A stretch of 37,458 bases of DNA. It comes from Myxococcota bacterium (GTDB lineage Bacteria > Myxococcota_A > UBA796 > GCA-2862545). Positions within the stretch are counted from its first letter, which is position 1. The number at the start of each line of letters is the position of its first letter. The stretch covers positions 1-37,458 of the forward strand of contig JBCCQY010000085.1 in assembly GCA_039208735.1 (NCBI GenBank). Reading direction: 5' to 3'. The notes beneath the pieces were generated by a model. It was not told the DNA's origin, ran no database searches, and worked only from the letters and a program-made list of their open reading frames with translations. A program made the translations under genes and the position numbers. Shown piece after piece: positions 13,527 through 24,097 of the stretch.

Positions 13527-15209
13527 ATGCAGCCCTCCGACTGGCAACCCTACCGTGGCGAGCGCTACCTCGACTTCGACGCGGTGGACCGACACGTCAA
13601 CGAACTCGCGGCCATCGCCCCCGACTGGGTCTCCCTCGAACGCCTCGGCTCGTCGCGAATGGGCCGTCCGTTGCACCTGCTGACGATCGGCGATCGCACC
13701 CAGGGCAACCCCGACCATCGGCCCGCGATCTGGCTCGACGGGGGAACGCACGCCATCGAGTGGACGGGCGTGATGAGTGCGTTGGCGTCGGTGTCGCGGT
13801 GGGTGGAAGGCCTTGTTCAAGGCGACCCCACACTCACCGAGGCGTTCCGGCAGCACACTGCCTACGTGGCGCCCTGCGTGAGCCCCGATGGGCTGCACGA
13901 GACGATGCACGGGCGGCCCTCCTTTCGCAGCACGCTGCGGCCCCCCCGCGTCGGCACCTCGCGGATCGGGTTCGAGCCCCACGACATCGACGGAGACGGG
14001 TTCGTCGGATGGATGCGGTGGCGGCACCCCAGCGGACCGTGGGTCGCCGATGGCGGAAACCTCGTGCTTTTGCGCCCTCGCACCGTCGATGATGATCCAG
14101 CGGAGGCCTTCTTCTTGGTGCCCGAGGGCCGGTTCTTGCAGTGGGATGGCGTCCGCTACCTCGATGCCCCGCTCGAACTCGGACTCGACCTCAATCGAAA
14201 CTTCCCTGTAGATTGGTCGCCGTTTTCGATGTTCGGCATGGACGCCGGTGATTTTCCAGGAAGTGAGCCCGAGAGTCGCGCGCTACTGGACGCGGTTGCG
14301 AAGCGCCCCCACATCGCTGCTGCGGTCACCAACCACACCTACACAGGCTGCTTGCTGTGTCCTCCCGGTCGGAAGGACACGCCGCTTTCCCCAGGCGACG
14401 TCAACCACATGCATCGGCTGGCCAAGGACTTGGTCCGCGACACGGGCTACCGCGTCTACAAGGTCTACCCGGAGTTCATGTACGACCCTGACAAGCCTAT
14501 CATCGGGACGTGGGACGACACGCTCTCGGCGGTCTTCGGCATCGCCGCCTTCACCCTCGAGCTGTGGGACCCGTTCGCCTGGGCGGGGCTCGAACCCGAA
14601 GATCCCACCACCATGTGGCGCGACCCCAATCACGATCGCATTCGCGCCGTCATGGACAAGATCGTGGCTGAGGGTGCGGCGCGGCCCTGGCAAGCATTTG
14701 AGCATCCCCAGCTTGGTCCTGTTGAACTGGGCGGAATCGACTACCACCGCACGGTGCGCAATCCTCCAGAGCCTTTGTTGCGAGCCGAGTGTGACCGTGG
14801 CCACCTCGTGGTGGACCGACTCCGGCGATCGTTGCCCCAGGTCACGCCATCCCTGACCATGCGCCCGCTGAACGACGGAATCGTCGAGATCCTCGTGGAA
14901 CTCGAAAACCGAGGGGCGCTGGCGACGAGCGGATTGCAGCGGGCGGTCACCGTCGGCGCGTCACCCCCGGTTCGGGTCGCTCTCCATGGCGCGGATCCGG
15001 TGGCGGGCGACCGCGACCAAACGTTGGACCATCTGTCGGGATGGTTCCGGTCCGGATTTGGCCGTTCGCCGGTCTATCCAGGTTTGGGTCTGGATAGCCC
15101 ACGGACCGCGGCTCGGTTCATGGTGCGGTCCGAGGATCTCGCGAACGTGCGCATCGAATGGTGGGCAGGCCGCGCGGGCCGAGGCGTTCTCACCGCCAAA
15201 GGAAAATGA
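13527..15209 (+). CDS. M14 family zinc carboxypeptidase
   Basis: GTHAIE (HxxE), SPDG, DLNRNF, SEPE, NHT (third Zn ligand) and FTLELW (catalytic Glu). Confidence 0.92.
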   Translation: MQPSDWQPYRGERYLDFDAVDRHVNELAAIAPDWVSLERLGSSRMGRPLHLLTIGDRTQGNPDHRPAIWLDGGTHAIEWTGVMSALASVSRWVEGLVQGDPTLTEAFRQHTAYVAPCVSPDGLHETMHGRPSFRSTLRPPRVGTSRIGFEPHDIDGDGFVGWMRWRHPSGPWVADGGNLVLLRPRTVDDDPAEAFFLVPEGRFLQWDGVRYLDAPLELGLDLNRNFPVDWSPFSMFGMDAGDFPGSEPESRALLDAVAKRPHIAAAVTNHTYTGCLLCPPGRKDTPLSPGDVNHMHRLAKDLVRDTGYRVYKVYPEFMYDPDKPIIGTWDDTLSAVFGIAAFTLELWDPFAWAGLEPEDPTTMWRDPNHDRIRAVMDKIVAEGAARPWQAFEHPQLGPVELGGIDYHRTVRNPPEPLLRAECDRGHLVVDRLRRSLPQVTPSLTMRPLNDGIVEILVELENRGALATSGLQRAVTVGASPPVRVALHGADPVAGDRDQTLDHLSGWFRSGFGRSPVYPGLGLDSPRTAARFMVRSEDLANVRIEWWAGRAGRGVLTAKGK

Positions 15210-16260
15210 ACGCGGCCAAGATGCCAATCAGCAGGCCCAACGAGACGGCGAGCGACATCATCCACGGCGGCAGGTTCTCGTCATCCAAGTCCCGCAGCGG
15301 AACATCATCGTCCGGCGTGAAGTCGTTGGAGGGAGGCCGACCGGGTTCGGGCAGCCGACTTCGCGATTCGTGAAAGCTCGTGTAGGTGGCCGCGTCTGGA
15401 GGCAACCGCTCGGCGAGAGGCTTGATAGTGCGCATTTTCAAGCGCCCTGATGCCGTACGACGAGCCGGGCTGCCCGGCGAGAGTTCATGGGCAAACTCGG
15501 GCACCGTCGATCGCCGGGCGTCGCCCGAACGCACGAGAGCGGGAGCACTACGTCGCTCGGGCGCCGGCTCCCGGGAGGGGCGTGGCGCGAGGTGGCGCGG
15601 CGGGCTCGGCTCCCTCGACGGCCGTGGAGCGAGATTGCGAGGGGGGCTCGGCTCCCGTGAGGGACGCGGAGACGTCGGAACGGCACGGCGAACCTGCACG
15701 GGCTCCCGCGATGGACGCGCACCGCGCAGCGGCGCGGGTTCCCGAGAGGCGCGGGGTGCGGAATCTCGAGGAGGAGCCGGATCGCGCGAGGGACGTGGCG
15801 GCTGGGACGCTCGGGAGGGCGCCGGCTCGCGAGACGCCTTCCGCGCGCTTCGGCTGGGAAACACGTCGCGCCGGGGGGCCGGCTCGACCGAACGACGTCG
15901 CACGGTCCCAGCCGGCCGATGGACCGAGGGAGGGGCTTGGCCCAACGGAGCGGGAGGCGGCGCCGGCTCGTTGGGGTTTTGTGGCCGAATAGGACTCCGC
16001 CAGCCCCGAAGGGTCGGCTCGGTTTGCGGTTCGCCATCATCGGCGAGGGGAAAGTTGTCGCGAACCGTGGGCTCGGTAGGTTCGGTGGGAGGATCACCCG
16101 TGAAGAGCGGTCCCGCCGGACGCGTCGGCGCGGTCGGTTCGTCGTCAAAGTCCTCGCTGGGGGTATGACGCGGCGCACGGATCCCGTCTGGTCTTTTGGC
16201 TCCGACCAGGGTTGGCGGTTCGCTGTCGGGATCGCGCATGGCAGCCACGGCTTCCTCCAC
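15190..16260 (-). CDS. Pro/Arg-rich disordered protein with a C-terminal transmembrane anchor
   Basis: EPT and SREP repeats; ends in LAVSLGLLIGILAAFIFLWR. Start is uncertain (16260 or 16239). Confidence 0.75.
   Translation of the reverse strand: MEEAVAAMRDPDSEPPTLVGAKRPDGIRAPRHTPSEDFDDEPTAPTRPAGPLFTGDPPTEPTEPTVRDNFPLADDGEPQTEPTLRGWRSPIRPQNPNEPAPPPAPLGQAPPSVHRPAGTVRRRSVEPAPRRDVFPSRSARKASREPAPSRASQPPRPSRDPAPPRDSAPRASREPAPLRGARPSREPVQVRRAVPTSPRPSREPSPPRNLAPRPSREPSPPRHLAPRPSREPAPERRSAPALVRSGDARRSTVPEFAHELSPGSPARRTASGRLKMRTIKPLAERLPPDAATYTSFHESRSRLPEPGRPPSNDFTPDDDVPLRDLDDENLPPWMMSLAVSLGLLIGILAAFIFLWR
15555..15840 (-). repeat. Intragenic peptide repeats: 7 x SR(E/D)P, including a 14-aa tandem unit PRPSREPSPPR(N/H)LA
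   Basis: Read directly from the translation; coordinates are approximate. Confidence 0.75.
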
Positions 16261-16292
16261 AGAGCCGAGCGTTTATCATGAACCCGCAGGAA

Positions 16293-16327
16293 GCAAGGGC
16301 TCGAGGACCCCTCGGCGCAACCCTTGC
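16293..16327 (-). other. Intergenic hairpin downstream of the polA-like gene (possible terminator or RNA element)
   Basis: Minus strand GCAAGGGTT...AGCCCTTGC (9 bp including one G-U pair) enclosing CGAGG/CCTCG; only a weak U-tail (TTCC). Confidence 0.4.
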
Positions 16328-16379
16328 ATATACAACAATTCTCCATGCATCAAATGCCAGGAGCGCCCAGGAGTTTGCG

Positions 16380-18932
16380 TCAGGGTCGAGCCACCGCTTC
16401 GAGAGAAGCCCAGTCCGGTCCTGCTTTCGCTCCGACCCGTAAAGGGACGTCGAATTGGGCGACCGCTTCGAGCGCATGGCACCCCACGCGGACGGTGTCC
16501 ATCAATTCGTCGTCGGGGACTTCGAACAAAATTTCGTCATGAACTTGGACCAGGGGCCGGGCCACGAGTCCTGCCTCTTGAAGGGCCAGGTCAACCCTCC
16601 TCAACCCGAGACGGGCCACATCGGCCACGGTGCCCTCGATGGCGGCGCGACGAGCCAAACGTTCCGCGTAAGCGCGATCCTTGATCTCGAGGCTCTGCAG
16701 TCCCCCGACCCGCCATCGTCGACCCGACCAAGACGTGACTTCTCCGGTCGTCCTTGCCTGATCGAGCTGTGATTCCTGATAGGCGCGAGCGATCGAATAA
16801 TAGTCATTGAAGCGTGAAATGAAGGTTCGAGCTTCCGGCACTTCGATGCCCAACTGGGCGGCGAGCGCACTCGATCCTTGCCCGTTGAACGTCGCAAAGT
16901 TGACGGCCTTGGCGACCTGTCGTTGGTCGTCGGTCACCGCCTCAGGGGCAACTTCGAACAAGGCGCTGGCGGTAATGCGATGCAGGTCAGCGCCCGATCG
17001 GATGGGCTCGGCGAGCTTAGGATCCCCCGACAAGTGGGCCAAGACCACCAACCCTAATTGCGCGTAATCGATCGAAAGTAAGGTTCGGCCTTCCGGGGGA
17101 GCGAATGCCCGTCGGATCCAGGACATGGCTTCGGTGCGCCCAGGGACTCGAGACAAATCCGGGTCGCTGCACAACACACGCCCAAAGAAGGAACGAGCAA
17201 GATGTTGGCGAGCCCGGACCCGGCCATCGGAATCGACCGCGGGCCTTAGGGCGGTCACCCAGGCATCGATGAGCCGGCGATGCTGCCGCCATGCCATCAC
17301 TCTGGGAACGATGGCGTGGGTGTCTTGGATGCGGGCCAATACATCGGTGGCCGTACTAAAGCCCGTCTTCGTTCGAATGGGAGGGTTGAGGCCGAGTTCC
17401 TCAAACAAGACTTTGGAGAGCTGCTTCGACGATCCGAGGTTGAACGAATGCCCCGCCAGATCATGGACTTCGCCCTGGAGTCGCTCCACCCGTTCCGAGA
17501 GCCATGCTTCAGCCTCATCGAGCCGTTCTGGCCGGCACGCAATGCCACGGGCCTGCATGGCGGCAAGCGTTTCGGAGAGCTGAAGCGCAAAGGCATGATG
17601 GGGCCCCGGTTCACCAAACCGAGGCGCCAACTCGGCAATCGCGACCGCACGTCCGCCCGCCCATCCTGCGCACATCGCGGGCTCGACCTCTGAAAAAGGC
17701 TTTGCCCCCTTCCCCTTGCCACACACGGCCTCCACGGGGACCAGAGCGCGCCGAAGGACGGCTCGAACCACCCGTTCAAGGTCGTGGGGGGCTCGGCCAA
17801 CCGGATCATCGAGGTGGCTTGCGGTCCCTGTGTCGAGATGCACACCCGCCACGTCAATGTCGTGCCGAAGACCGGTCACCATGAGATCGCTCGCGCCGTG
17901 CACGAGCTTGCGACGTACCGGATCGGCGAGCCAGGAGGCCAAGATCGCGTCGACCTCCTCCCGCACGTCCACATAGATGGCGTCGTCGGGCCCTCGGGCC
18001 AGCCCGACCCCAACCCAGGCGCCCCGCACCGGGCTCGGGCCTTCTGTCACCAGCTCCACCGCCACAGGCTCGGGGCCCCGCGACAGCCACACCGCAAGCG
18101 CCTCCCCACGCACGACGGGCACCTCGATCGCCTGCTGGGGGACATCCTGGAGCAACGCCGTGAATCCGAGGACCTGGTACGTCGCGTTGAGCGCTTCACG
18201 CGCCGGGGGTTCGAAGGCACCGTCGTCCATGGAGAAGGGAGACGAGCCCCCGCGCAACGTCGCTCGAGCCACCTCGGCGGTGGCTTGGTCCCCTGCGTTG
18301 CGCAAAGCCTTGCGCACCCGCGAGGGAAGGTCGTCGAGAACCTGGAGTGCGGCAGCGAGCGAGCCGTGAGCTTCCAGCAGCTCGATGGCTGATTTCTTGC
18401 CCACCCCGGGAACCCCATCGAGCAGGTCGCGCTCCCCGACCAGGCCCAGAAAGTCTCCGATCCATGAGGGAGGCACTCCAAACCGTTTTCGCACGATGTC
18501 TTCGGTACTGAACAGGTCTTTGTGCTGCTCGTACCACCACACTCCGGGCCGCACGAGCTGGGCCAATCGCTTGTCGGCCCCGACCACCACCACCTCATGC
18601 CCCGCCTCGACGGCCTGCTCGACCGCCGCTGCCGCTGCGCGGAGGGCATCCTCGACGTGAGTCCAGGTAAATCCATGCGCGTCGAGCAAGGTTCCCAACC
18701 GCGCGTGCTGTTCGGCCAGGGGCCGAGGCCACGACGCATCGGGAGCGGAAGCCTCTAGCACCGCAATCGCCCGATCGGGCTGCTTGCGCGCGCCCACGCG
18801 CAGCAGGGCGAGCGCCACGCCATAAAGCGCATTGGCAATCCGACCCTCCCGATCTCGCCGATCGGGAGGTACTGCCTGAAAACTTCGGACCAGCAGGTCC
18901 GTAGCGTGAACGACGACGGTACGACCCGGCAT
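16380..18932 (-). CDS. Divergent family A DNA polymerase I-like protein with degenerate 5'-nuclease and proofreading domains
   Basis: Full Pol I architecture: H3TH (GVPGVGKKSA), FNLGSSKQL..LF, motif A DYAQLGL, DLH, motif B RQVAKAVNF and motif C VHDE. The symbol polA is withheld because of many active-site substitutions. Confidence 0.92.
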   Translation of the reverse strand: MPGRTVVVHATDLLVRSFQAVPPDRRDREGRIANALYGVALALLRVGARKQPDRAIAVLEASAPDASWPRPLAEQHARLGTLLDAHGFTWTHVEDALRAAAAAVEQAVEAGHEVVVVGADKRLAQLVRPGVWWYEQHKDLFSTEDIVRKRFGVPPSWIGDFLGLVGERDLLDGVPGVGKKSAIELLEAHGSLAAALQVLDDLPSRVRKALRNAGDQATAEVARATLRGGSSPFSMDDGAFEPPAREALNATYQVLGFTALLQDVPQQAIEVPVVRGEALAVWLSRGPEPVAVELVTEGPSPVRGAWVGVGLARGPDDAIYVDVREEVDAILASWLADPVRRKLVHGASDLMVTGLRHDIDVAGVHLDTGTASHLDDPVGRAPHDLERVVRAVLRRALVPVEAVCGKGKGAKPFSEVEPAMCAGWAGGRAVAIAELAPRFGEPGPHHAFALQLSETLAAMQARGIACRPERLDEAEAWLSERVERLQGEVHDLAGHSFNLGSSKQLSKVLFEELGLNPPIRTKTGFSTATDVLARIQDTHAIVPRVMAWRQHRRLIDAWVTALRPAVDSDGRVRARQHLARSFFGRVLCSDPDLSRVPGRTEAMSWIRRAFAPPEGRTLLSIDYAQLGLVVLAHLSGDPKLAEPIRSGADLHRITASALFEVAPEAVTDDQRQVAKAVNFATFNGQGSSALAAQLGIEVPEARTFISRFNDYYSIARAYQESQLDQARTTGEVTSWSGRRWRVGGLQSLEIKDRAYAERLARRAAIEGTVADVARLGLRRVDLALQEAGLVARPLVQVHDEILFEVPDDELMDTVRVGCHALEAVAQFDVPLRVGAKAGPDWASLEAVARP

Positions 18933-19008
18933 GACCTCTTGTATGCCCTCGCCTCGAGCCTTGCGCAGGAGGTCAGGCGGCGGTACGCCACAGGCCGATG
19001 GAGTCGAC

Positions 19009-19857
19009 ATGTCGCAACTGAAGCTCGCTCTGCCCAAGGGGCGGATGCATGAAAACGTAGTGCGGCTCCTCGACGATGCCGGCATCCAGCTGCGGGTGAG
19101 TCCGCGGGGGTACCGGCCCACGGTGTCACTCACCGACGTCGAGACCAAAATTCTCAAGCCGCAATCCATTGTCGAAATGATTCATACCGGCACCCGCGAC
19201 CTGGGTTTCGCAGGAGCGGACTGGATCGCGGAGCTGCAAGTCGACGTTGTAGAGGTGCTCGACACGAAGCTTGACCCCGTCAGGGTGGTCGCTGCAGCCC
19301 CTGTAGACCTGCTCGAAAACGGCAAACTCCCTGACCGGCCCTTGGTCGTGGCTTCCGAATACATGCGACTGACGCAGGCGTGGGCGCGACCTGGAGACCG
19401 GGTCGTGCGGTCCTACGGCGCCACCGAAGTGTTGCCTCCCGAAGACGCGGACTGCATTGTCGACAACACGGCGACCGGCAGTACCCTTCGGGCCAACAAC
19501 CTGCAGATCGTGCACGAACTCATGCGGTCGTCAACCCGGCTCATCGCCAACTCGCGAGCCATGGAAGACCCGGGCAAGCGGGCGCGGATCGAAGAGATCG
19601 GCCTCATGCTCTCGGCGGTCATCGAAGCACGGCCGCGGGTGATGGTGGAAGTCAACGTGTCCCGCGAGGCCCTGGAACAGCTGCTCGACGTCCTGCCGAG
19701 CATGCGCCAGCCCACCGTCGCTGAACTGGCTCATGGCTCGGGATTTGCGGTCCGATCCGCCATTCCGCGCGGCGATCTGCCGTTGGTGGTGCCCCGGCTC
19801 AAATCGGTCGGGGGCACCGACATCGTGTGGACCGAAATCGCAGGAATCGTGCCGTGA
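19009..19857 (+). CDS. hisG: ATP phosphoribosyltransferase, long form with C-terminal regulatory domain
   Basis: LALPKGRM, DLGFAGAD, YGATE, IVDNTATGSTLRANNL and PSMRQPTV motifs. Confidence 0.96.
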   Translation: MSQLKLALPKGRMHENVVRLLDDAGIQLRVSPRGYRPTVSLTDVETKILKPQSIVEMIHTGTRDLGFAGADWIAELQVDVVEVLDTKLDPVRVVAAAPVDLLENGKLPDRPLVVASEYMRLTQAWARPGDRVVRSYGATEVLPPEDADCIVDNTATGSTLRANNLQIVHELMRSSTRLIANSRAMEDPGKRARIEEIGLMLSAVIEARPRVMVEVNVSREALEQLLDVLPSMRQPTVAELAHGSGFAVRSAIPRGDLPLVVPRLKSVGGTDIVWTEIAGIVP

Positions 19858-20897
19858 AACTTACCTGTGTCGACCGCGTTGCACAGATCCGGGCGTATTC
19901 GGTCCCGAAGTCCGGCGTTCCCTGTGACCTACGACTCGACGGCAATGAGGGGCGCAAACCGGATGGCCGGTGGGCTCAACCCCTCGGCAGTCCCGAGGTG
20001 GCACGCCAGTACCCGAAACTGACGGCGCTGCAGGAGCGACTCGCCGCTCGCCATGGCGTGGCGGCCGAACAGGTGTTGGTCACGGCCGGTGCCGATGAAG
20101 CGCTCGACCGGGCCTGCCGGGCGATGCTCGACGAGTCACGCGGTCTCGTGCTGCCACTCCCCACCTTCGAGATGCTGCACACGTACGCCAAGCTCACCGG
20201 GGCCCGCATCGCTGAAATCGCTTGGCCAGGTGGCGCCTATCCCGAGGCAGCCGTCCTCGAGGCCATCGACGAACGTACGGTAGCCGTCGCCATGGTCAGC
20301 CCCAACAACCCCACAGGGGCCGTGGCCACGGCCGAGAACCTCGCACGGGTCGCCGCCGCAGCCCCGCTCGTGCTCCTCGATCACGCCTACGTGGAGTTTG
20401 CCGACCATGATCTGTCGGCACGCGCTCTCGAACTCGGCAACGTCATCGTCTTCCGAACGTTGTCGAAGGCCTGGGGCTTGGCCGGCCTGCGCATTGGCTA
20501 CGCCGTTGGACCCTCCGAACCCATCGGATGGATGCGCAGGGTCGGTCTTCCCTACCCGGTGAGTGGTCCGAGCCTGCATGTGGCGCTCGATCAGCTCGAT
20601 CGGTCGGTCGCCGAGGTCGATGCGTTCGTTACTGCGGTCCGGTCGCGACGCCAAGTCCTGGAGGCTCGCCTGCAAACGCAGGGGGTCGCCCTCGAGCCAA
20701 GCCAGGCCAATTTCGTATTCCTGCGCCACCCGGGCGCCGATGCCTTGCGAGAGGGCCTTGCCCAACACGGCATCGCGGTCCGCGGCTGGCCCGGTCATCC
20801 AGTGCTCGCCGATGGGTTGCGCATCACCGTGCCCGCCGACGATGCGAGTCAGCAACGTCTCCTCGCTGCCCTTGACGCAGTTCTGGCTGTCGCATGA
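19854..20897 (+). CDS. hisC: Histidinol-phosphate aminotransferase
   Basis: LDGNE, GADE, SPNNPTG, DHAYVEF and RTLSKAWGLAGLRIGY motifs; GTGA overlap with hisG. Confidence 0.95.
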   Translation: MKLTCVDRVAQIRAYSVPKSGVPCDLRLDGNEGRKPDGRWAQPLGSPEVARQYPKLTALQERLAARHGVAAEQVLVTAGADEALDRACRAMLDESRGLVLPLPTFEMLHTYAKLTGARIAEIAWPGGAYPEAAVLEAIDERTVAVAMVSPNNPTGAVATAENLARVAAAAPLVLLDHAYVEFADHDLSARALELGNVIVFRTLSKAWGLAGLRIGYAVGPSEPIGWMRRVGLPYPVSGPSLHVALDQLDRSVAEVDAFVTAVRSRRQVLEARLQTQGVALEPSQANFVFLRHPGADALREGLAQHGIAVRGWPGHPVLADGLRITVPADDASQQRLLAALDAVLAVA

Positions 20898-21478
20898 GTC
20901 GAATTGCCGCGACGAAACGCACCACCCGCGAGACCTCGATCACCGTCCGCGTCAACCTGGATGGCACGGGAACTCGGCAGGTTTCGACGGGGGTGGGATT
21001 CCTCGATCACATGGTCGAGACCCTGGCCCGGTTCTCGAACGTCGACATTCAACTGACCTGCGAAGGCGACCTGCACATCGATGCCCACCACACCGTGGAA
21101 GACTGTGCGCTGGCCCTCGGTCAGGCGGTTGCCGAAGCCCTTGGCGAAAAGCGTGGAATTGTTCGCTTTGGCCATGCCTACGCCCCGCTCGATGAGGCGA
21201 TGGCCCGAGCCGTCATCGACCTTTCGGGCCGCCCTTGGCCCGACATCAACCTGCACCTCACGCGGGACCGCTTAGGCACTCTCGATACGGACGACCTCGT
21301 TCACTTCCTGCAGTCGTTCGCCATCGCGGCGCGAGCCAGCCTCCACGTCGATGTGCTGAAGGGTCGCTTCGACCATCACAAGGCTGAGGCTGCCTTCAAG
21401 GCGGTTGCCCTGGCCCTCCGCCACGCCATCGCCCACGACGGCGGCGACGAGGTTCCTTCCCTCAAAGGCACGCTGTGA
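20894..21478 (+). CDS. hisB: Imidazoleglycerol-phosphate dehydratase (monofunctional)
   Basis: RTTRET, FLDHM, DAHHTVED, DHHKAEAAFKA and PSLKG motifs. Confidence 0.97.
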   Translation: MSRIAATKRTTRETSITVRVNLDGTGTRQVSTGVGFLDHMVETLARFSNVDIQLTCEGDLHIDAHHTVEDCALALGQAVAEALGEKRGIVRFGHAYAPLDEAMARAVIDLSGRPWPDINLHLTRDRLGTLDTDDLVHFLQSFAIAARASLHVDVLKGRFDHHKAEAAFKAVALALRHAIAHDGGDEVPSLKGTL

Positions 21479-22068
21479 GCACGATCACCATCATCGAAAC
21501 GGGCCTTGCGAACCTCGCCAGCGTCCAGGCCGCCTGGCGCCGGCTGGGTCATGACCCTCTCGTGACCAAAGACCCCGACGTCGTCGGCTCGGCTGACCGC
21601 GTCATGCTCCCTGGCGTCGGGGCCTTCGCCCCTGGCATGGCCATGTTGAATGCGCATGGGCTGACCGAGGCGCTGCGGGAACGGGTGGCCCAAGGTCGGC
21701 CGCTGCTCGCGGTGTGCTTGGGCCTGCAGCTCCTCGGACAACAGAGCGAAGAGGGCCCAGGCATCGAGGGCTTAGGCATCGTCGAAGCATCCGCGGAACG
21801 ACTGCAGGGGCCCGACCGCGTACCCCACATGGGGTGGGCCCCCATCTTGCCAACGCCGAACGCCCGCTACCTCGTTGCGGGTCACGCCTACTTTGCCCAT
21901 AGCTACGCGATTCGGGCGGAAGGCCTTGCGGGAGCTTCGAGCGCGCACAGCGGACGTCGCTTCGTCGCCGCCATCGAACACGGGCCCGTGCTAGCATTGC
22001 AGTTTCATCCAGAGTTATCGGGATCGCTCGGCGAGTCGATCCTCGCCCGCTGGGCCGAGGAGGGCTGA
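21475..22068 (+). CDS. hisH: Imidazole glycerol phosphate synthase, glutaminase subunit
   Basis: PGVGAF, VCLGLQLL, VPHMGW, YFAHSY and QFHPE motifs. Confidence 0.96.
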   Translation: MSTITIIETGLANLASVQAAWRRLGHDPLVTKDPDVVGSADRVMLPGVGAFAPGMAMLNAHGLTEALRERVAQGRPLLAVCLGLQLLGQQSEEGPGIEGLGIVEASAERLQGPDRVPHMGWAPILPTPNARYLVAGHAYFAHSYAIRAEGLAGASSAHSGRRFVAAIEHGPVLALQFHPELSGSLGESILARWAEEG

Positions 22069-22070
22069 TC

Positions 22071-22841
22071 ATGGCAACCCGACGCATCATTCCGTGCCTC
22101 GATGTGGCTCACGGGCGCGTGGTCAAGGGGATTCAGTTCCAAGGCTTGCGTGACGCGGGCGACCCGGTTGACCTGTCGCAGGCCTATGAAGCCCAAGGGG
22201 CCGACGAACTTGTCATCCTCGATGTCGCGGCGACCCCTGAAGGCCGAGGCCACGCGGTGCGCACCGTCGAAGCGGTCCGCGCGGCCCTGCGTATTCCATT
22301 GACGGTGGGCGGTGGATTGCGAACTGTCGACGACGCCCGCCAGCTGCTCGAGGTCGGCGCTGACAAGGTCGCGGTCAACACGGCGGCCGTGCGGCGCCCT
22401 GAGCTGCTCGGCGAGTTGGCCGAAGCGTTTGGGGTGCAATGCGTGGTGCTCGCCATCGACGCCGCCCGTGCACGCGACGAGGCGCCCACCGACAGTGGCT
22501 ACGAAGTCGTGGTCCGTAGCGGCAAGGAACGCACGGGCCGCGACGTGGTGCAATGGGCCATTCAGGCCGTCGAGCAAGGCGCCGGCGAAATCCTTCTCAC
22601 GAGCTGGGACCGCGACGGCACCCGTTCGGGCTACGAGCTGCCCCTGCTCAAGGCCGTGTCCTCGGCCGTCAACGTACCGGTCATCGCGTCGGGAGGCGCG
22701 GACACCATCCAGCACCTCGATGAAGCCGTGCAAGCCGGCGCAGACGCGGTCCTGGCCGCTTCGATTTTCCACGACGGCCAGTCCACCGTTGCCGACGTCA
22801 AAGCCGCCCTCATCGAGCGCGGCCTGGAGATTCGCCCGTGA
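22071..22841 (+). CDS. hisF: Imidazole glycerol phosphate synthase, cyclase subunit
   Basis: [31 protein letters not shown] and AASIFH motifs. Confidence 0.97.
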
Positions 22842-24097
22842 TCGTCCCATCCATCGACTTGCGTCACGGTCAGGCAGTCCAGCTGGTCGGCGGGGCTGAA
22901 CCCGCGATTGAGGCTGGCGATCCCGTTCCGTTGGCCCAGCAGTTCGGCGTGGTCGGCCCCATCGCGGTGATCGATCTTGGCGCCGCCCTTGGCGATGAAG
23001 TCCAGCACACCGAAACCATCACCCATCTCTGCCAGGTTGCGCGCTGTCGGGTAGGCGGAGGCCTCCGCACCATCGACAAAGCCAAGGCCTGGCTCGACCG
23101 AGGGGCGGAACAGATCATCATCGGGACCGCCGCCACGCCCGAATTCGTGCGCCAGTTGCCTCGCGAACGTGTCATCGCGGCCCTCGATGCCGTCGATGGT
23201 GAGGTCGTGGTCGAAGGTTGGCGGACCAAGACGGGGCGCTCCATCCTCGAAGGGATGGCCGAGCTGCGCGACCACGTTGGGGGCTTCCTCGTCACCTTCG
23301 TCGAGCGCGAAGGAAGGCTTCAGGGCACGGATCTGGAGCGCGTCGCCGCGTTGGTCGAGGCCGCCGGTGATGCCGAGCTGACCATCGCGGGGGGCGTGTC
23401 TTCGATCGAGGAAATCCGAGCCCTCGATGAACTCGGGGTGGACGCGCAAGTGGGCATGGCGCTCTACACGGGGCGCTTCACCGCGGGCGCTTCGGTGGCC
23501 GGCCTCTTGAAGACCGACCGCCCCGACGGACTGTTCCCCACCGTGGTGACCGACGAGTCCGGCGTCGCGCTGGGCCTTGCCTACAGCAGCGCAGCGACCC
23601 TCGCCGAAGCCATCGATACCCGTACGGGCATCTACCACTCGCGCAGGCGAGGCCGATGGCAGAAGGGGGCGACCTCGGGAGCCGTCCAAGAGCTGATCGC
23701 CGTCGATCTCGACTGCGACCGCGACACCGTTCGGTTCACCGTTCGCCAGGCCGCACCGGGGTTCTGCCATGAGAATACCTGGACGTGCTGGGGAGACGCC
23801 GGCGGGGTTCCCGCCTTGGCCCGAACCCTCGCGTCTCGGGTCACCTCGGCGCCCGCAGGTAGCTACACACGTCGGCTTCTCGACGACCCAGAACTCCTGG
23901 CGTCGAAACTGCGTGAAGAAGCCCAGGAACTCATCGAGGCCTCTACGCCCGCGGAGGTCGCCCACGAGGTCGCGGACGTCGTGTTTTTCGCACTGGTCGC
24001 GATGGTGCGGGCCGGCGTGCCGTGGAGTGAGGTCGAGGCAGTGCTCGACCGTCGGTCACGCCGAGTGACCCGACGTCCCGGGCATGCCAAGCACTGA
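22838..24097 (+). CDS. hisAIE: Trifunctional HisA-HisI-HisE fusion protein
   Basis: HisA barrel (IVPSIDL, VGGGLR, AALD, IAGG, GMALYTG); HisI (SRRR..W.KGATSG, DCDRD, FCH..TCW); HisE (SYT, KLREEAQE, EVADVVF). Confidence 0.92.
   Translation: MIVPSIDLRHGQAVQLVGGAEPAIEAGDPVPLAQQFGVVGPIAVIDLGAALGDEVQHTETITHLCQVARCRVGGGLRTIDKAKAWLDRGAEQIIIGTAATPEFVRQLPRERVIAALDAVDGEVVVEGWRTKTGRSILEGMAELRDHVGGFLVTFVEREGRLQGTDLERVAALVEAAGDAELTIAGGVSSIEEIRALDELGVDAQVGMALYTGRFTAGASVAGLLKTDRPDGLFPTVVTDESGVALGLAYSSAATLAEAIDTRTGIYHSRRRGRWQKGATSGAVQELIAVDLDCDRDTVRFTVRQAAPGFCHENTWTCWGDAGGVPALARTLASRVTSAPAGSYTRRLLDDPELLASKLREEAQELIEASTPAEVAHEVADVVFFALVAMVRAGVPWSEVEAVLDRRSRRVTRRPGHAKH

Follow-up and report, generated by a model that had tools for sequence, protein, structure and literature searches.

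What does a DNA polymerase I (Pol I) do when the glutamate that keeps ribonucleotides out of its active site has been replaced by glycine? This question is raised by a gene of a Myxococcota bacterium, located on the minus strand at positions 16380..18932 of contig JBCCQY010000085.1 (assembly GCA_039208735.1), the 37,458 nucleotides of which are called the window below. The gene encodes a Pol I paralogue of 850 amino acids (P0001) and begins with an ATG at 18932, the same start as in its homologues. An initial annotation, made from the sequence of the window, described the product as a re-specialised polymerase that might incorporate ribonucleotides. We find that the Gly-gate gene is a conserved extra Pol I copy under purifying selection, and that its co-occurrence with a LigC-type ligase is near-complete, the Gly polymerase being found almost always in genomes that have this ligase. 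The reading we favour, at about an even chance of being right, is that of an accessory, Pol I-derived repair polymerase of low fidelity that would place one ribonucleotide or a few, or nucleotides of either sugar, in short DNA gaps, after which the LigC-type ligase would seal the nick.

The sugar gate and the surrounding active site

Publications are cited by PubMed Central (PMC) identifier, each for those parts of its text that were available. In Pol I the sugar gate is E710, whose partner is Y766, and the E710A and Y766A enzymes both act as mutators and close their fingers poorly (PMC3715850; PMC13492167). The terminal base pair is read by R668, Q849 and N845 (PMC3347538; PMC10520511). To map these residues, P0001 was aligned to E. 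coli PolA from NC_000913.3. The motifs named in the initial annotation (DYAQLGLV, RQVAKAVNFATFNG, PDLSRVP, ARRAAIEG and VHDE) are all present on the minus strand, on which all features of the gene described here are located. Motif A (17052..17069) extends from D622, the equivalent of D705, to G627 at the position of E710, and the gate codon, claimed at 17052-17054, is indeed a GGG. Motif B (16884..16922) keeps R671, K675 and F679 and has N683 at the position of Y766, and an R762-x-x-x-E766 arrangement (16635..16649) replaces N845 and Q849; the alignment bears out all four proposed substitutions, E710G, Y766N, N845R and Q849E. The motif 2a/6 region (17142..17195) is rewritten around R580-S581-F582 and R585, the equivalent of R668, with PDLxRVP in place of PNLQNIP, and further replacements relative to E. 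coli PolA are N675D, Q677S, N678R, R712V and Y640W.

Glycine occupies the gate in all 120 best homologues and in 91/91 loci, which between them use each of the four Gly codons. A scan of GTDB genomes, in which 364 of 421 candidate stretches were confirmed, returned 80 loci, mostly titled Myxococcota, the phylum to which most hosts of the Gly family belong; the scan patterns were NFATFAGQ and DKR[LYF]AQLV, so that position 766 is partly preselected in the scan loci and the gate is not. Removal of sequences more than 90% identical or with more than 150 gaps in the polymerase domain reduced 212 pooled sequences to a non-redundant set of 157. Gly710 is conserved in every one of them, as the initial annotation had anticipated; its parallel expectation for Asn766 fails, since position 683 (equivalent to Y766) is Ala in 152 sequences and Asn in five, the Asn being lineage-specific. 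The same two positions, E710 and Y766, have been called universally conserved in family A (PMC3715850).

Fifteen residues of P0001 are invariant in the 157 sequences (G627, D622, H651, R671, K675, F679, D799, E800, R762, R580, S581, F582, W558, D592 and R595), and these include the equivalents of D705, D882, E883, H734, R754, K758 and F762; E766 is Glu in 156 sequences and Asp in one. The claim that all catalytic and triphosphate-binding residues are kept stands for P0001 itself, which has D705, R668, H734, R754, K758, F762, H881, D882 and E883 (the last three as H798, D799 and E800 of motif C, 16533..16541). It does not extend to the family for R668, kept as R585 in 94/157, and H881, kept as H798 in 66/157. 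In a large subclade that includes Labilithrix luteola (L039-L114), R668 has become His, Gln, Glu or Asp and H881 has become Leu or Val, and all metal ligands are kept. At 17 alignment columns of the set, one conserved residue has changed to a different conserved residue. The pattern in the family is sharp: the metal and triphosphate binders are invariant, the readers of sugar and base-pair shape have been replaced by new invariant residues, and the holders of the primer end drift.

Such a pattern could also be expected of a template-independent or protein-directed nucleotidyltransferase, an explanation we regard as possible though unlikely. The invariant R762 and E766, together with R580-S581-F582, would then select one nucleoside triphosphate and add it at the ends of DNA or RNA, or across from gaps and abasic sites; protein-directed nucleotide choice is familiar from Rev1 and the CCA-adding enzymes. 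All readers of the nascent or terminal base pair have been switched (E710, Y766, N845, Q849, N675, Q677 and N678), no metal or triphosphate residue varies although R668 and H881 are dispensable, and the 17 swapped columns agree with a change of function of this kind, as does template-free RNA synthesis by Pol theta E2335G (PMC6158600). Conversely, the thumb residues that bind duplex DNA (equivalents of N579, S582, T609, R631 and R841) are kept in P0001, and where R762 and E766 lie with respect to the nucleotide is deduced from the sequence. A transferase would be compatible with a LigC partnership, and the two ideas are thus not exclusive.

Two fixed changes, from Glu to Gly at 710 and from Gln to Glu at 849, allow another explanation, in which E766 at the 849 position and R762 would restore the sugar selection lost at the gate, and the rebuilt pocket would belong to a specialised polymerase of deoxyribonucleoside triphosphates (dNTPs) acting in lesion bypass or mismatch extension. 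In the Bst enzyme the equivalents of Q849, R668, E710 and D882 are mutually close (PMC10520511), and F762, which contributes to the exclusion of ribonucleoside triphosphates (rNTPs) (PMC13492167), is kept. However, the gate residue is always Gly and no other small residue, which suggests that space is needed there, and the association with LigC would be left unexplained. The main gain in rUTP binding reported for E710A is just about twofold (PMC3715850), a value that cuts both ways. We consider a restored dNTP polymerase unlikely.

The order of domains in P0001, as found with Pfam, is that of canonical Pol I: 5' nuclease, 3' exonuclease-like and polymerase. The 5' nuclease (FEN-like) domain (residues 6-227, 18252..18917; PF02739 and PF01367) is conserved and predicted to be inactive, as the carboxylates D13, E113, D115, D116 and D140 are lost, with the position of D140 taken by the Arg of an invariant DKR motif. 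The core of a vestigial 3'-5' exonuclease-like domain follows (residues 308-408, 17709..18011), matched by PF22619 slightly below threshold (26.6 vs 27 bits), and the residue map to E. coli PolA shows its proofreading acids to be missing as well; the initial annotation had mentioned neither loss. The polymerase domain (residues 469-842, 16407..17528) matches PF00476 with an E-value of 4e-94 and 316 bits against a cut-off of 34.3, which places P0001 in family A. Its best PDB matches are the Taq, M. smegmatis, Bacillus and Klenow Pol I structures, and the Atlas model of P0001 reaches template modelling (TM) scores of 0.93-0.96 to Pol I clusters, a likeness of overall fold that does not show the pocket.

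Ratios of nonsynonymous to synonymous substitution (dN/dS) range from 0.16 to 0.28 in the 12 closest pairs. In 210 pairs of 21 genomes, which are not independent of each other, the mean polymerase-domain identity is 0.68 for the Gly family, possibly inflated by transfer, versus 0.54 for canonical PolA; the two nuclease domains also exceed those of canonical PolA in conservation (0.56 vs 0.45 and 0.46 vs 0.31). A contig from another study spans 16954-17697 with 13 differences, none of them in the Gly codon among the 12 listed, and of the differences listed for related contigs of public runs, 23/30 are synonymous. An assembly error and decay, which would have undone the proposal of the initial annotation, were ruled out by the fixation of Gly in homologues, the use of four Gly codons, the agreement of the independent contig at the Gly codon and the purifying selection; a paralogue selected in this way beside a canonical polA has been re-specialised rather than left to decay at random.

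Good conservation of dead nuclease domains, together with the frequent loss of R668 and H881, could point to a catalytically silent DNA-binding scaffold that recruits repair enzymes in the manner of ImuB. Pseudo-enzymes, however, usually lose their catalytic carboxylates or triphosphate ligands first, and here the three carboxylates and all triphosphate ligands are retained in 157/157 sequences. Substitutions of Q849 and E710 are known to impair Klenow (PMC10520511), which favours the scaffold; we nevertheless hold it to be improbable.

Origin, relatives and distribution of the Gly family

Canonical polA is present in the genome of P0001 (contig C178) and was confirmed by motif in 20/20 other carriers checked, of 50 searched. 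The separate polA that the initial annotation had asked for thus exists, and replacement of a sole polA was ruled out. A second paralogue (contig C136, 24405-25481; L002), clipped by the contig end, keeps both Glu and Tyr. It belongs to a Glu-keeping paralogue group (L002, L011-L019, L021, L120-L128) in which the motifs DWSQIELR, NFATIYGQG and PDLQRTP were noted, the 5' nuclease carboxylates are kept and proofreading is lost. In polymerase-domain trees the Gly family is a single clade (1.0 FastTree, 100 SH-aLRT), nested within the Glu-keeping group (0.999 FastTree, 99 SH-aLRT); these were quick searches without bootstrap on subsets of 99 and 49 rows. The topology suggests that polA was duplicated, that a second duplication followed, and that the 5' nuclease site was then lost and the pocket rebuilt. 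Possible intermediates were observed in P0130, a sister to the Gly clade that keeps Glu and Tyr and has lost the 5' nuclease acids, and in P0128 and L018, which have Asp at the gate. Obligate pairing of the Gly polymerase with the Glu-keeping paralogue was ruled out, a full-length, high-scoring copy of the latter being present, by score, in 5/50 carriers.

Another, distant PolA domain in the same genome (contig C110, 5085-5801; L004) ends a long open reading frame with a primase/helicase-like front part. The usual Glu is likewise absent from its motif A, GDWRAAFVQ, and the domain is probably carried by a mobile element.

The distribution of the Gly family is patchy, with carriers among 7/61 relatives, 6/151 genomes phylum-wide and 8/121 genomes of the Labilithrix order. 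A cultured carrier is Labilithrix luteola DSM 27648, in which the protein (AKU93633.1 / WP_146645358.1) is annotated merely as DNA polymerase I. With canonical Pol I (PolA1 of PMC12926913, cluster 1 of PMC10201439; NF004397/TIGR00593) P0001 shares the three-domain layout and the catalytic and triphosphate residues. It nevertheless scores below both canonical NCBIfam cut-offs (506 of 720 and 410 of 600 bits), and it differs by the replaced E710, Y766, N845 and Q849, by the lost 5' nuclease site and by being an extra copy wherever checked; the Gly family forms a clade separate from the polA of its own genome and is not orthologous to it. Another accessory family A paralogue is APEX/PolA2 of Actinobacteria (PMC10201439, PMC12926913), which also has dead proofreading, occurs in large genomes and has been proposed to act in error-prone repair. 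In the available parts of these papers APEX is reported from Actinobacteria only and is without a 5' nuclease domain, unlike P0001, which has this domain and whose family has mostly Myxococcota hosts; P0001 is also far below the cut-off of the APEX-type model NF011539 (152 of 640).

The initial annotation compared the gate to that of T7 RNA polymerase. Both have Gly five residues past the motif A Asp (G542 in T7), and a processive, T7-like DNA-dependent RNA polymerase or primase has to be weighed for this reason. T7 RNA polymerase retains Y639, R425, H811 and H784, unlike the Gly family, where these are lost or variable; a profile comparison finds no similarity (probability 0.2%); promoter-recognition insertions are absent, and in length and domains P0001 matches Pol I; and neither IMG/VR nor a phage collection yielded a viral member. 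The comparison thus reduces to a single shared Gly, acquired convergently by a descendant of Pol I, and we consider a T7-like enzyme very improbable. A phage origin was likewise dismissed, IMG/VR being empty of members and the best phage-collection matches being about 27-31% identical.

LigC co-occurrence and a proposed role in gap filling

A polymerase without a sugar gate would need a ligase that tolerates ribonucleotides, and candidate ligases were therefore tested, in a search directed at these candidates rather than a genome-wide screen. The LigC-type ligase was defined by a match to NF006078, a minimal ATP-dependent ligase of 350 amino acids, which we take to be LigC. This naming fits the presence of a primase-polymerase (Prim-Pol) nearby in 19/47 loci and the size of the protein, in agreement with that given for LigC in PMC1920237. 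The genome of P0001 encodes such a ligase on contig C271 (452 bits against a cut-off of 296). Among the relatives it is present in 7/7 carriers and 2/54 non-carriers (2/19 of the non-carriers of at least 6.6 Mb), and in the Labilithrix order in 8/8 carriers and 28/113 non-carriers. Further carriers have it in 52/53 cases, the exception being a 4.8-Mb bin, and 27 mostly large non-carrier genomes have it in two. In the union, LigC was found in 64/65 carrier genomes, after merging of G002 with G203 and with G191 and G235 counted once. Two genomes are flagged as unpublished, the LigC-positive non-carrier G339 and the carrier G199 (locus L044), and their removal shifts each affected count by one. 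The control ligase NF002868 was found in 26 of the same 53 carriers and in 1/27 non-carriers.

Carriers that have no Prim-Pol of the LigD/Prim-PolC type, seven in all, have LigC without exception, and one of them shows a LigC gene convergent with a gene for a stand-alone 5'-3' exonuclease (L171, G037:C17). In two unbiased samples the LigC-positive non-carriers have a Prim-Pol in 30/30 cases, and Prim-Pol is absent from 3/15 carriers versus 0/30 of these non-carriers (Fisher p 0.03). Strict dependence on Prim-Pol was also considered and set aside (7/8 vs 65/113, p 0.14, not significant). Ku was not found in 5/5 carriers searched, the genome of P0001 included, and a context of non-homologous end joining was dropped on this ground. 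RNase HII is present.

Our preference for ribonucleotide gap filling is based on the intact two-metal and triphosphate residues, the Gly gate, the lost nuclease sites, the purifying selection, the retained canonical polA and the LigC co-occurrence, which fits ribonucleotide repair. In the proposed sequence of events, the kept thumb and H3TH elements would bind gapped duplex DNA; Gly710 and Ala or Asn766 would make room for the 2'-OH in the sugar pocket and relax the check on the base pair; with no working 5' nuclease there would be no nick translation, hence short patches; LigC would close the nick; and the patch might later be replaced by RNase HII and canonical Pol I. That the Glu-to-Gly change at the gate permits rNTP use is known from Pol theta E2335G and the Taq E615G variants (PMC6158600; PMC9533422). 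These engineered enzymes (the Taq variants SFR3, AA40 and SFM4, and also Klenow I709E E710G) have the same motif A change and, according to their listed mutations, keep the equivalents of Y766, N845, Q849 and R668, unlike the Gly family, which is natural and has a further rebuilt pocket.

The proposed job is analogous to that of mycobacterial Prim-PolC, which fills gaps of 1-3 nucleotides with rNTPs before LigC seals them (PMC5663958), although Prim-PolC has the archaeo-eukaryotic primase (AEP) fold and P0001 is a family A enzyme that forms no operon with ligC in the 80 loci. Another mycobacterial repair enzyme, DinB2, which is named in PMC5663958, has reportedly also lost sugar discrimination in nature; it is a member of family Y rather than family A.

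Several observations weigh against ribonucleotide gap filling. The two residues that hold the primer end are often missing, R668 from 63 and H881 from 91 of the 157 sequences, and Klenow R668A has reduced activity (PMC3347538). A Prim-Pol of the LigD/Prim-PolC type is present in 58/65 carriers, in which a gap-filling role would often be redundant. The Gly-polymerase gene is not linked to ligC at any of the 80 loci, and, with control for canonical PolA, the distances of the two proteins gave no sign of co-evolution (partial r 0.22, permutation p 0.14; 0.00 if the genome of P0001 is left out). LigC is not the only ligase to follow the carriers: the top ATP-dependent ligase class, LigB-like in two checked, is found in 7/7 carriers versus 8/54 non-carriers among the 61 relatives, and part of the LigC link may thus reflect a lifestyle that is rich in repair generally. 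The Glu-keeping paralogue also tracks LigC (13/18), most of the 27 large control genomes belong to other families, and the co-occurrence counts include kin and hence are not independent.

A more radical proposal, for which we see a small chance, is that a family A enzyme has switched from dNTPs to rNTPs through its rebuilt pocket (G710, A/N766, R845, E849 and the RSF residues), such that side chains rather than a template would choose the ribonucleotide at gaps or ends and the product would be passed to LigC. Within family A, rNTP use has been known from engineered mutants and, at a distance, from RNA polymerases of the T7 type. With a natural Gly-gate clade that is widespread, has co-evolved pocket changes and can be set beside an identifiable ancestor clade, the transition from DNA to RNA polymerase becomes testable in one lineage; if the reading is true, this transition took place independently within Pol I, and the Glu-keeping ancestor group, still extant, can serve for comparison. 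The clade would also bring a second fold of polymerase into ribonucleotide repair of the LigC type and provide a ready scaffold for the synthesis of RNA and modified nucleotides.

We found no description of the Gly family in the literature searched, most subscription papers being outside the reach of that search. In its available parts, PMC12926913 names PolA1, PolA1-like, PolA2 and PolA3 and no such group, with L. luteola in its genome list, and in PMC10201439 none of the 19 cluster headings names the Gly family and the accessible text does not mention Myxococc-. The Glu-keeping paralogue group is also unnamed in the parts of both surveys examined.

Gene neighbourhood and upstream region

No conserved neighbour or operon was found across the 80 loci, the 143 adjacent genes being heterogeneous; neighbour clusters cover at most 6/81 loci, except for shadow frames and one broad 26-locus cluster of putative generic kinases. 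A scan of window positions 15000-20000 by consensus revealed no sigma-70 promoter. Upstream regions of the family have a TANNNT hexamer ending 5-14 bases 5' of the start codon in 29/80 cases, compared with 0-3 for seven control bins; 13/80 contain Shine-Dalgarno-like words. The contrast with canonical polA is clear, as its upstream regions have TANNNT in 0/15 and Shine-Dalgarno-like words in 12/15. The hexamer near the start and the scarcity of Shine-Dalgarno words suggest that Gly-family genes are stand-alone and often transcribed without a leader.

In three related Myxococcaceae loci (L042, L047, L058) a gene for a DinB-type Y-family polymerase is located directly 3' of the Gly-polymerase gene and convergent with it. 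The window itself encodes, at 15190-16260 on the minus strand, a Pro/Arg-rich protein of 356 amino acids with RPSREP repeats, a hydrophobic C-terminal segment and no Pfam match. On the other side, 76 bases from the gene, a divergent his operon (hisG, hisC, hisB, hisH, hisF and hisA fused to hisIE) occupies 19009-24097, and hisG also adjoins the Gly-polymerase gene in a genome of the same genus (L069).

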